Both the position numbers and the translations under genes were made by a program. A DNA stretch of 32,000 nt, from NCBI GenBank assembly GCA_000830275.1, contig CP010424.1, positions 60,001-92,000 of the forward strand, given 5' to 3'. The DNA comes from an archaeon GW2011_AR10. Its GTDB lineage: Archaea > Iainarchaeota > Iainarchaeia > Iainarchaeales > GW2011-AR10. Positions 6,931 to 23,673 of the stretch are shown piece after piece. The notes below the pieces were generated by a model, which made no database searches, was not told the DNA's origin, and saw only the letters and a list, made by a program, of their open reading frames with translations. Position 1 is the first letter of the stretch, and each line of letters opens with the position of its first letter.

Positions 6931-6953
6931 TAAAACCGTGTTTTTTCAGAAAC

Positions 6954-6962
6954 CTATTTAAA
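6954..6962 (+). promoter_or_regulatory. TATA box (CTATTTAAA, preceded by A-rich BRE-like GAAAC) for tRNA-Pro(UGG)
   Basis: It lies about 28-32 nt upstream of tRNA position 1 (6990). The same box type is seen at other starts in the window. Confidence 0.55.
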
Positions 6963-6989
6963 TGATTTCAAAGCAGTTTTTTACTGCAA

Positions 6990-7234
6990 GGGGTCGTAGT
7001 CTAGTCTGGTCTAGGATGCGAGCTTTGGGACAGCTGAAAGGTCAGCTGGCAACCTATATGTCAAGAGATTTCGCTGCGCTCAATCCCTTATTAATTTGGA
7101 CTGCATTATGGGCTCAAATTGTAAGGGTTTTCAGCGTTCGAACCTTGATTAATTTGTAGGCAATAGCTGGGTTACTTTATGGCTATTCAGTTGCGAAATA
7201 GCTTGTGACGGGGGTTCAAATCCTCCCGGCCCCA
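6990..7234 (+). tRNA. tRNA-Pro(UGG) with a 170-nt intron at the canonical 37/38 position (exons 6990-7029 and 7200-7234)
   Basis: Hand fold. Acceptor GGGGTCG/CGGCCCC with discriminator A. D arm GTCT-AGTCTGGTCTA-GGAT. Anticodon stem CGAGC/GCTTG. Loop TT-TGG-GA. Variable TGAC. T arm GGGGG-TTCAAAT-CCTCC. BHB: TTTG(32-35) pairs with CGAA(7194-7197), the 3-nt bulges are GG|A and AT|A, and the outer helix is CAGCTG(7031-7036)/CAGTTG(7188-7193). Confidence 0.8.
7030..7199 (+). other. tRNA-Pro(UGG) intron, 170 nt
   Basis: It is delimited by the BHB described for the tRNA. It contains hairpins CAGCTG-AAAGGT-CAGCTG (7031-7048) and AATAGC...GCTATT (about 7162-7187), plus an internal repeat of about 32 nt. 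Confidence 0.75.
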
Positions 7235-7309
7235 TTAGCCGGTTGCGTCCGGCTGTGACGCGGAGTGGAGGGTTTTCGCTTCGCTCAAACCATGGGTATG
7301 CCTTCAAAA
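7215..7309 (+). repeat. 95-nt direct repeat, copy 1 (last 20 nt of tRNA-Pro(UGG) plus 75 nt of trailer)
   Basis: By hand alignment, 90 of 95 positions are identical to 7973-8067. It contains hairpin GCCGG-TTGCGT-CCGGC and the motif TTTCGCTTCGCTCAAACC. Confidence 0.9.
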
Positions 7310-7318
7310 CTAATTCAA

Positions 7319-7326
7319 TTTTTTTT
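7319..7326 (+). terminator. Oligo-T tract (T8), candidate archaeal terminator for the tRNA and trailer transcript
   Basis: A run of 8 T lies downstream of the tRNA and repeat. Archaeal RNA polymerase terminates at oligo-T. Confidence 0.4.
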
Positions 7327-7395
7327 GTTTCCGTCTGGTTTTTATTCGTATTTGCTCAATTAAGTATTGCTCTTTTTGAGCAGTGAGGTGGTTAA

Positions 7396-7806
7396 TTGGT
7401 TTCGTTTGATGTCAGCCCTGTTGCAGTTGTGGTTGCAGGCATTCTGGCAATGGTTTTGGGCTTCATTTGGTATGGGCCTTTGTTCGGCAAAAAATGGATG
7501 AAGCTGTCAGGAAAAACAATGAAGGACATGGAGGCAGCGAAAGGAAAAATGCCGGCGCTATACTTTTTTGGCTTCATTGCAGCGCTGATAACAGCATTCA
7601 TTTTAGGAGTTCTGATTAGCTCTCTTGGAGTCACACAGTTGGGAGACGCGCTTGTTGTTGGAGTGCTTGTCTGGCTGGGCTTTGACGTGACGCTTCTTTT
7701 AGGAGGCATTCTTTGGGAGGGAATGTCAAAAGAACTTTTTGTGCTGAATGCAGCGCACCAACTGGTTAATCTGCTGGTGATGAGCGCAGTGTTTGTTTAC
7801 TTGTAA
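7396..7806 (+). CDS. DUF1761-family membrane protein
   Basis: VAVVVAGILAMVLGFIWYGPLFGKKWMKL and four hydrophobic segments match my recollection of DUF1761. The TTG start is preceded by the Shine-Dalgarno-like GTGAGGTGG 7-8 nt upstream. Confidence 0.65.
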   Translation: MVSFDVSPVAVVVAGILAMVLGFIWYGPLFGKKWMKLSGKTMKDMEAAKGKMPALYFFGFIAALITAFILGVLISSLGVTQLGDALVVGVLVWLGFDVTLLLGGILWEGMSKELFVLNAAHQLVNLLVMSAVFVYL

Positions 7807-7807
7807 G

Positions 7808-7839
7808 GGAAGCTTTTGCTTCCTTTCCTTTTTCTTTTT
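7808..7839 (+). terminator. Hairpin GGAAGC-TTTT-GCTTCC followed by a T-rich tract
   Basis: A perfect 6-bp stem sits immediately after the stop of the DUF1761 gene, then TTTCCTTTTTCTTTTT. Confidence 0.45.
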
Positions 7840-7871
7840 AATTTCTTTCCACCAAAACATTATTTTGTTCA

Positions 7872-7970
7872 GGGGACGTAGTATAGTTTGGTCTAGTACC
7901 CAAGCTCGGGGGCTGTAAGACCTTTACAGCCGATTAGCTTGTAACCCCAGTTCAAATCTGGGCGTTCCCA
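7872..7970 (+). tRNA. tRNA-Pro(GGG) with a 24-nt canonical intron (7912-7935)
   Basis: Hand fold. Acceptor GGGGACG/CGTTCCC (one G.U) with discriminator A. D arm GTAT-AGTTTGGTCTA-GTAC. Anticodon stem CAAGC/GCTTG. Loop TC-GGG-GA. T arm CCCAG-TTCAAAT-CTGGG. BHB: TCGG(32-35) pairs with CCGA(7930-7933), bulges are GG|G and TT|A, and the intron hairpin is CTGTAA/TTACAG. Position 33 reads C rather than U. Confidence 0.72.
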
Positions 7971-7972
7971 CT

Positions 7973-8067
7973 TTCAAATCGTCGCGGCCCCATTAGCCGG
8001 TTGCGTCCGGTTGTGACGCGTAGTGGATGGTTTTCGCTTCGCTCAAACCATGGGTATGCCTTCAAAA
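7973..8067 (+). repeat. 95-nt direct repeat, copy 2 (orphan T-loop and acceptor remnant TTCAAATCGTCGCGGCCCCA plus trailer)
   Basis: It starts 3 nt after the tRNA-Pro(GGG) discriminator base and has 5 mismatches to copy 1. Confidence 0.9.
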
Positions 8068-23494: not shown

Positions 23495-23673
23495 CCGATT
23501 GCGTACTGGCACTCCGCAACACATCAAGCCATTTTATTTTACTCAATGGCTTATAAACATTAATTGGCTCAGAGTTGAGTTGACCCGATTGCGTACGGGT
23601 ACTCCGCATACCTCGAGGTATTTCACTTCGTTCAACACCTCATAAATATATTCTGGCTCAGAGTTGAGTTGAC
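23495..23673 (+). repeat. Two tandem ~90-nt units (23495-23584, 23585-23673), plus a degenerate third start up to about 23697
   Basis: Each unit has a conserved 5' module CCGATTGCGTAC(T/G)GG(C/T)ACTCCGCA and a conserved 3' module TGGCTCAGAGTTGAGTTGAC. The core is a variable hairpin: AAGCCATT/AATGGCTT in unit 1, GAGGT/ACCTC in unit 2. Confidence 0.9.

Follow-up and report, generated by a model that had tools for sequence, protein, structure and literature searches.

A dispersed structured repeat in the 170-nt intron of the only tRNA-Pro(UGG) gene of the archaeon GW2011_AR10

The window analysed here is a stretch of 32,000 nucleotides (nt) of GW2011_AR10, a tiny DPANN archaeon from groundwater, corresponding to bases 60001-92000 of its single 1.24-Mb contig (CP010424.1; genome scored 99.9% complete). 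From the sequence alone, positions 6990-7234 had been read as a gene for tRNA-Pro(UGG) that is split by an unusually long intron with a bulge-helix-bulge (BHB) splice motif. With introns allowed, ARAGORN called tRNA-Pro(tgg) at exactly 6990-7234 and a 170-nt intron from gene position 41, leaving the proposed exon boundaries unchanged. The 5’ exon (6990-7029; tRNA positions 1-37) and the 3’ exon (7200-7234; tRNA positions 38-73, CCA not encoded) lie, like all window features below, on the plus strand. As anticipated, the joined 40 + 35 nt fold as a standard tRNA: the 75-mer is a cloverleaf with U33, anticodon UGG, G37 and A73, and with acceptor, D, anticodon and T stems of 7, 4, 5 and 5 bp. The intron (7030-7199) occupies the canonical site 37/38, exon 1 ending in ...CTTTGGG (U33, UGG, G37) and exon 2 beginning with A38.

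A base-by-base pair check of the precursor recovered every element named for the BHB. Beyond the anticodon stem (CGAGC/GCTTG), a central 4-bp helix joins TTTG (7024-7027) to CGAA (7194-7197) with one U-G pair, and an outer helix joins CAGCTG (7031-7036) to CAGTTG (7188-7193) with one G-U pair. The splice sites fall within the two 3-nt bulges, GG↓A and AT↓A. Acceptor stem, anticodon stem and outer intron helix are already present in the unconstrained minimum-energy fold of the precursor.

Run without introns, ARAGORN returned no tRNA call in the window, and neither did Rfam at its gathering score; both misses are due to the length of the intron and do not speak against the gene. No other tRNA-Pro(UGG) gene occurs in the whole genome and, given the 99.9% completeness, the sole copy has to work. 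The genome also encodes one detected EndA catalytic domain (PF01974, 90.7 bits, 172-aa frame), an RtcB-type ligase (PF01139, 477 bits) and an RNase P RNA. In contigs from several independent groundwater and soil DNA runs, the locus was unchanged except for one single-nucleotide polymorphism (SNP; position 7175), and the contigs of four DNA runs contained neither a length variant nor a strain with a shorter or empty intron. Among the sequencing runs listed for the locus, none is recorded as RNA. Two apparent variant joints were ruled out: one (7017-7207) derives from another organism’s tRNA-Pro, and the other, seemingly between opposite strands, is the genome’s own tRNA-Pro(CGG) locus. We regard it as confirmed that 6990-7234 is a functional, single-copy tRNA-Pro(UGG) gene with a canonical BHB intron at 37/38. 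The EndA gene maps to genome positions 137330-137590 (locus L084:1474-1992, minus strand). RtcB, outside the window at 778633-781446, forms a single 1003-aa open frame in which ~490 residues, probably an intein, are inserted between Pfam positions 50 and 49.

The first 71 nt of the intron (7030-7100) are a full copy of a structured repeat module of ~70 nt, which starts at the first intron base (covariance model R1: 81.5 bits, E 1e-17, model positions 1-71; nhmmer: E 1.5e-19). The module opens with hairpin H1, CAGCTG-AAAGGT-CAGCTG (7031-7048), whose 5’ arm doubles as the 5’ strand of the BHB outer helix. A pseudoknot-type pairing follows (7039-7055), in which AGGT of the H1 loop (7039-7042) is matched by ACCT (7052-7055), 3 nt past H1. 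Hairpin H2, AAGAGATT-TCGCTGCGCTC-AATCCCTT (7063-7089), carries one A.C mismatch in the intron copy and is followed by the AT-rich tail ATTAAT (7090-7095). A degenerate, partial second module without H1 extends over 7112-7156 and comprises the linker, an H2’ hairpin (AAGGGTT...AACCTT) and a GATTAAT tail; local alignment, a direct repeat (D5) and a weak nhmmer match all point to it. The internal repeats of the sequence-only reading are thereby real, albeit degenerate: 7045-7098 aligns locally with 7112-7156 at a score of 34, against a mean of 17 and a maximum of 33 in shuffled sequence. The 3’ part of the intron (7160-7199) consists of a hairpin and the BHB closing strand, that is, CAGTTG (7188-7193) of the outer helix, CGAA (7194-7197) pairing with TTTG of the anticodon loop, and the AT of the bulge. 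One full and one partial tandem module, together with this 3’ hairpin and closing strand, account for the length of 170 nt. The suspicion that the extra length represents cargo was therefore well placed.

As to the nature of this cargo, a box C/D guide RNA of the tRNA-Trp type had been suggested and was rejected: a C box (RTGATGA) is absent throughout the intron, CTGA occurs just once, there is no K-turn signature, and the proposed Rfam search matched no family to the intron even at E values up to 10, sRNA and intron families included. A self-splicing (group I or II) or endonuclease-bearing intron was likewise rejected, as the Rfam intron families reveal no ribozyme core and the longest stop-to-stop frame has 42 codons. 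Among the three ideas put forward, a decayed mobile insert comes closest in that the cargo is a dispersed repeat, but its full copy is structurally intact rather than decayed. The TATA-like CCTATATG singled out at 7053-7060 is present, yet it is no free-standing promoter box: it comprises the 3’ strand of the loop-spacer pairing (ACCT) and the start of a conserved linker, ATAYGTC.

To describe the family, 46 copies from this genome and 24 relatives were aligned to model R1. Their common layout is a 6-bp hairpin (H1), a 3-nt RCR followed by a stretch of 4-6 nt that matches the 3’ portion of the H1 loop as its complement, the ATAYGTC linker, an 8-bp hairpin (H2) with the conserved loop TCRCTKCGYTC and a covarying 2-bp inner stem, and an AT-rich tail, ATTAAT or ATAAATAT. 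H1 is 96% paired over 45 copies, with compensatory changes in 6/6 pairs, and H2 98% paired, with covariation in 9/10 pairs, percentages that lean upward because the alignment was fitted to these two helices. Across both, 252 double-sided changes were observed as compared to 73.5 in column shuffles, and pairing drops to 24-46% when partners are slid by 1-3 columns. The alignment rows display many distinct stem sequences under constant loops.

The loop-spacer pairing lies outside model R1. It is 62% paired at fixed alignment columns and, when the register is left free, at least 4 consecutive Watson-Crick pairs form in 25/45 copies, almost always in one register; permuting the partners gave an expectation of 6.2 ± 2.2 copies (maximum 14 in 3000). 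An independent sample, selected solely for 6-bp hairpins no more than 7 nt away from the end of a tRNA or exon, contained the pairing in 13 of 39 tRNA-flank hairpins, with 1.3 expected.

A second, commoner subfamily reads AAACGG-AAAGGTC-CCGTTT, ACGACCTATATGT, GTGCCAT-CTTCG-ATGGCAC. It shares H1 loop and spacer with the tRNA-Pro(UGG) copy and differs in the stems, which unites the two in one superfamily. The AAACGG subfamily forms tandem arrays, two or three modules long, at 1159073-1159290 and 698931-699100, far from tRNAs. A third motif, GGCTCGCTTCGCTC or the hairpin CTCGGCTC-TTAA-GAGCCTCG, is often found behind H2 and is similar to the loop that H2 has in the other subfamily. Stems are 95% Watson-Crick, and G.U pairs (15) are about as scarce as A.C (10), implying that the element folds equally well from either strand; as a guide to the selected strand, the ratio of 15 to 10 was not decisive. 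A loose structure scan with one mismatch was discarded (~7000 matches per strand). Also dropped was a distal copy of the H1 3’ arm as a general module feature (10/43 copies, 5 expected); it holds for intron copies, in which the BHB requires one.

Within the genome, the intron used alone as a BLAST query found its first ~67 nt at five other places, and profile searches (nhmmer and covariance model R1) returned ~12 strong and several partial copies in the 1.24 Mb. Sequence at tRNA genes makes up 1.45% of the genome and contains five of the 12 strong matches (P about 5e-7). A structure-based scan for H1 plus its loop complement counted ~105 occurrences per strand, as opposed to ~40 in shuffled sequence. 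About 40% of the genome’s tRNA genes bear a module. Beside tRNAs, H1 starts 1-4 nt from the tRNA or exon end, and orientation is regular: 13 forward copies in trailers, 7 inverted ones in leaders and 4 forward ones in introns, with 3 exceptions. The intron copies seen all reside at 37/38, in tRNA-Pro(UGG), tRNA-Pro(CGG), tRNA-Ser(GCU), whose intron opens with the module, and tRNA-Ser(UGA), whose module is partial. The 151-nt intron of tRNA-Pro(CGG) combines a forward with an inverted copy and, judged by its sequence, looks like a 5’-half trailer fused to a 3’-half leader. This gene lies at genome positions 218659-218886 (locus L054:1385-1612), and its intron is a nearly perfect long palindrome. 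When very long introns are allowed, ARAGORN also invents calls in this genome, namely Pro(agg) i246, Pyl(cta) and Stop(tta).

Five independent intergenic loci share one layout, in which a gene ends 3-29 nt from the AT-rich end of the module and, on the H1 side, a co-directional gene starts 12-79 nt beyond H1 (5/5). Genes downstream of the intercistronic modules are operon-internal and encode a purQ-type amidotransferase, a porA-type subunit and an E2 acyltransferase. The modules stand just upstream of these purQ-like, porA-like and E2 genes (genome 259789-260559, 287427-288587 and 747377-748684), and in two of these cases a duplication repeats the ribosome-binding site and start codon of the downstream gene.

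With respect to the order at large, model R1 matched 24 of 120 other sampled genomes, from at least 12 families and with up to 11 copies each; the remaining 96 gave no match. Placement was read from fetched loci after correction for 1-3 nt of overlap with ARAGORN gene ends. Five relatives each have one tRNA whose long intron (79-126 nt) begins with the module, and in a sixth relative the module is internal to a 181-nt intron of a sixth tRNA. Across the relatives, intron modules were seen in tRNAs for Gly, Glu, Ser, Arg and Pro. At least 7 further copies are inverted against tRNA 5’ ends, and 3 are forward in trailers.

Comparison with orthologous genes, as the sequence-only reading had advised, found tRNA-Pro(UGG) to be intron-less in 21 sampled genomes, two of the same family among them, and to carry a 37/38 intron in 17 others (16, 44, 48, 50, 51, 57, 69, 78, 83, 83, 88, 93, 97, 101, 102, 126 and 155 nt), counts that do not represent frequencies because split matches were fetched on purpose. 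Protein-spliced tRNA introns are stated to have ‘less than 100 nt’ (PMC4033280), and by that measure 170 nt is indeed unusual; within the order it is the longest tRNA-Pro(UGG) intron seen yet no isolated outlier, given the others of 83-155 nt. Minimal forms occur in a genome of another family (G053), whose introns in tRNA-Pro(UGG) (83 nt) and tRNA-Pro(CGG) (84 nt) consist of a single module, a distal repeat of the H1 3’ arm, 4 nt that pair with the anticodon loop, and 2 bulge nt. ARAGORN labels several of the relatives’ tRNA-Pro(UGG) genes ‘ggg’ by shifting the intron by one base (loci L118, L119, L123, L125, L129, L130 and L132).

The introns of the genome’s tRNA-Pro(UGG) and tRNA-Pro(CGG) are homologous at both ends, with the module 5’ and ...TGGGTT...TCAGTTGCGAA 3’; in tRNA-Pro(UGG), just a remnant of the inverted copy is retained. 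A relative of the same family has a 50-nt tRNA-Pro(CGG) intron with the same 3’ end and no module, which suggests, as far as these sequences tell, that an intron was present first and that the module later inserted into its interior or took the place of that interior. Identity of the tRNA-Pro(UGG) module amounts to 82% with the inverted tRNA-Pro(CGG) copy and 72% with an intergenic copy at 921455, as opposed to just 61% with the tRNA-Pro(UGG) copy of G053, whose copies are closest to one another. Since modules thus group by genome and not by tRNA, vertical inheritance by isoacceptor, prompted by CAGC and CAAC arms shared with G053, was rejected. Copies at 260591 and 287323 are identical in module consensus and differ in their flanks. 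Direct duplications of 13, 15, 17, 18 and 34 nt abut some intergenic copies; about half of the intergenic copies lack them, some copies are tandem units, and a target duplication of fixed length was not found among them. Taken together, the grouping by genome, the identical modules in different flanks and the duplications point to copying or homogenisation that would be continuing among intron, flank and intergenic sites.

The flanks of the gene hold further elements. A probable promoter TATA box, CCTATTTAAATG (6953-6964), is centred ~31 nt upstream of the mature tRNA 5’ end, and the motif YTTTAAAW recurs 24-38 nt upstream of several other tRNA genes of the genome. A short leader hairpin (GCAGT-TTTTT-ACTGC; 6973-6987), 2 nt upstream of the tRNA, is not a full module. 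In the 3’ trailer lies a variant module without AT-rich tail (7237-7293; partial R1 match), composed of H1 AGCCGG-TTGCGT-CCGGCT, the pairing GCGT/ACGC and H2 GGTTT-TCGCTTCGCTC-AAACC; relative to the intron module, its stems differ while loop and layout are the same. Oligo-T terminators are in use in archaea, and a run of eight T at 7319-7326 is the likely transcription stop of the tRNA unit.

Further downstream lies tRNA-Pro(GGG) (7872-7971), which has a 24-nt intron at 37/38 without a module. Directly after it, 7973-8058 duplicates 7215-7300 at 94% identity, an 86-nt segment made of the last 20 nt of tRNA-Pro(UGG) and the trailer module. Between the two repeats sits a DUF1761 gene (7396-7806). 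Relatives have Pro(UGG) and Pro(GGG) in tandem, separated by 100-300 nt and without a DUF1761 open reading frame (ORF); on sequence grounds, the 7215-8058 arrangement has the appearance of a local insertion or duplication in which a 3’ fragment of the tRNA was left behind. A homing-endonuclease or integrase cassette between the two tRNA-Pro genes was rejected, the ORF being a DUF1761 protein. Elsewhere in the window, two tandem intergenic modules (23495-23563 and 23582-23652; R1 26.7 and 51.2 bits) are part of a ~97-nt tandem unit; their H1 differs (CCCG...CGGG), with the loop-spacer complement kept.

We consider it probable that 6990-7234 is an essential, cis-spliced BHB tRNA gene whose intron owes its size to a resident structured repeat that is still being copied and to a partial tandem duplication of it. 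In the precursor, the H1 5’ arm would switch from its local partner to the distal CAGTTG box and so make the BHB outer helix; EndA would cut within the two 3-nt bulges, RtcB would join the exons, and the excised 170-nt RNA, probably circularised, would carry the folded module. The EndA/RtcB pathway is established, and excised tRNA introns are circularised in other archaea. The module itself would most likely be a non-autonomous duplicative repeat that persists at harmless sites, namely the spacers between cistrons and those segments of a tRNA transcript that are thrown away (introns, leaders, trailers). The older intron would have had just one module and measured ~83 nt, as in G053, before the partial tandem duplication enlarged it here.

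Several points weigh against this account. Splicing, circularisation and stability of the 170-nt intron are themselves inferred. A search of the genome for Y1 transposase, TnpB and reverse transcriptase (PF01797, PF07282, PF00078) gave no match, whereas the control genomes scored, so that an enzyme able to move the repeat is missing among these three families; REP/RAYT, IS200/IS605-TnpB and retro-element routes were rejected on this basis. Flanking duplications that are variable in length or missing are at odds with a classical transposase, and the grouping by genome could also come from gene conversion without transposition. By general pseudoknot stereochemistry, a true pseudoknot in the forward (intron) orientation would be cramped, with only 3 nt to span the 6-bp H1, and the loop-spacer pairing may there form an alternative hairpin instead; the reverse-complement module would have a roomier pseudoknot geometry. 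Finally, the covariation, the conserved unpaired motifs and the strict abutment of H1 exceed the needs of a neutral passenger and could reflect a function.

Such a function is the core of the strongest rival, unlikely in our judgement, by which the module would be a functional small structured RNA with ends made by tRNA processing, and the intron would be kept for its cargo. The module would be released by EndA where it lies in an intron, by tRNase Z in a trailer and by RNase P in a leader, so that tRNA genes would be the platform for its expression and processing; tRNA-linked hairpin RNAs and the C/D RNA of the tRNA-Trp intron follow a comparable logic. The strong covariation of H1, H2 and the loop-spacer pairing, together with conserved unpaired motifs, is what such an RNA should display; H1 begins 1-4 nt from the processing site in trailers, leaders and introns alike; the family is retained in at least 12 families of very small genomes; and stems of 95% Watson-Crick pairs, with G.U (15) close to A.C (10), are as expected if both orientations have to fold. 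However, the distribution is patchy (~40% of the genome’s tRNA genes; 96/120 other genomes without a match), leader copies would yield the reverse-complement RNA, a different sequence, no Rfam family matches, and intercistronic copies adjoin no processing site.

By a second, improbable rival, the module would act at the DNA level as a promoter or regulatory cassette, its AT-rich tail (reverse complement AAATATTTAT) serving as a B recognition element (BRE)/TATA box that fires towards H1. As a corollary, module-bearing introns would be fusions of a 5’-half-gene trailer with a 3’-half-gene leader, relics of split tRNA genes or intermediates on the way to them, whose 3’ half is possibly transcribed separately. 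The uniform layout of the intergenic loci (5/5) accords with a promoter, as do the inverted modules facing tRNA 5’ ends in the same direction, the canonical ATTTAAAT box at the module’s distal end in the tRNA-Ile leader and the tRNA-Pro(CGG) intron, in which the H1 end of the inverted copy faces exon 2. Trailer and intron copies, though, are oriented wrongly for a promoter, ATATTTAT differs from the genome’s usual YTTTAAAW box, and hairpin covariation and loop-spacer pairing would go unexplained. The tRNA-Pro(UGG) intron, moreover, has just its inverted-copy remnant, and with contiguous exons and a complete BHB, cis-splicing is sufficient.

That the gene is a disabled pseudogene with an unspliced insert is scarcely credible: default tRNA finders and Rfam miss it and the insert greatly exceeds the usual length of archaeal tRNA introns (PMC4033280), but it is the sole tRNA-Pro(UGG) gene of a 99.9% complete genome, its exons, identity positions and BHB are intact, its sequence is constant except for one SNP across several samples, and comparable module-bearing introns occur in other essential tRNAs of relatives.

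Two bolder ideas, which we take jointly, are unlikely: that the module represents a novel RNA class, small and structured, in DPANN archaea, or that the introns are fused half-gene flanks. An RNA of this class would comprise a pseudoknot-type H1 domain and H2 and would owe its biogenesis to EndA, RNase P and tRNase Z. If so, the order’s long tRNA introns would be kept as expression sites of the module RNA. Forward copies in introns and trailers would also be complementary to the inverted copies that lie in leaders of tRNAs and 5’ of the coding parts of the purQ-like, porA-like and E2 genes, a complementarity that could couple tRNA expression to those metabolic genes. If the introns were fused half-gene flanks, they would provide direct sequence evidence linking split tRNA genes with introns.

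Published work describes intron families in Thermoproteales together with a model of tRNA disruption driven by mobile elements (PMC4090602, PMC4033280, PMC3293823). No mechanism is known for ‘intron transposition’ in that group (PMC4090602), nor did a 2026 census of Asgard tRNA introns identify a general arrival route (bioRxiv 10.64898/2026.10.13.758758). In the open-access literature searched, we found no description of a tRNA-linked structured repeat of such kind in DPANN archaea. A canonical intron whose interior is traceable to a defined, covarying repeat offers a concrete, testable source of intron sequence and growth and a clue, rare at the sequence level, to the growth and spread of tRNA introns in archaea. 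With the minimal form of one module plus closing strand (83-84 nt) beside enlarged forms of 151 and 170 nt, it also provides a set of loci for following intron gain, loss and enlargement by comparative genomics. On the practical side, default tRNA annotation misses essential tRNA genes in genomes of this order.

Among known systems, Nanoarchaeum equitans has split, trans-spliced tRNA genes. Its genome, too, is a small DPANN genome, and complementary sequence beside the exon ends likewise builds the BHB; the tRNA-Pro(CGG) intron described here even resembles a 5’-half trailer joined to a 3’-half leader. The tRNA-Pro(UGG) exons, in contrast, are contiguous on one strand, 170 nt apart, with a complete BHB in cis. 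In Euryarchaeota, the tRNA-Trp intron encodes a box C/D guide RNA, and there as here a structured RNA cargo explains the length of a long 37/38 intron. The cargo there is a single conserved guide, whereas here it is a multi-copy repeat without C box, K-turn or match to an Rfam sRNA.

Bacterial intergenic repeats of the REP/BIME/REPIN type and of the type of miniature inverted-repeat transposable elements (MITEs) are likewise short, non-coding, multi-copy hairpins with covarying stems and dispersed, near-identical copies, sometimes in tandem or as inverted pairs, like the pair in the tRNA-Pro(CGG) intron, and often between co-directional genes. The present repeat differs from them in that no RAYT/Y1 transposase or TnpB was found, in that flanking duplications are variable or missing, and in its strong, oriented association with tRNA ends and introns.

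Thermoproteales, according to Fujishima et al. 2010 as summarised in PMC4090602 and PMC4033280, have similar introns across tRNA species of one and of related genomes, implying that intron sequence spreads between tRNA genes. Closely similar intron sequence likewise occurs here in tRNAs of different identity, but the setting is a DPANN order, the unit has a defined, covarying fold, its intron copies all sit at the canonical site, and it is not confined to introns, being found also in leaders, trailers and intercistronic spacers. Relative to the canonical archaeal 37/38 intron, finally, position, the two 3-nt bulges and the 4-bp helix are the same, and EndA and RtcB are encoded in the genome; what differs is the length, 170 nt versus ‘less than 100 nt’ (PMC4033280), and the interior, which is a conserved, dispersed, structured repeat rather than idiosyncratic filler.

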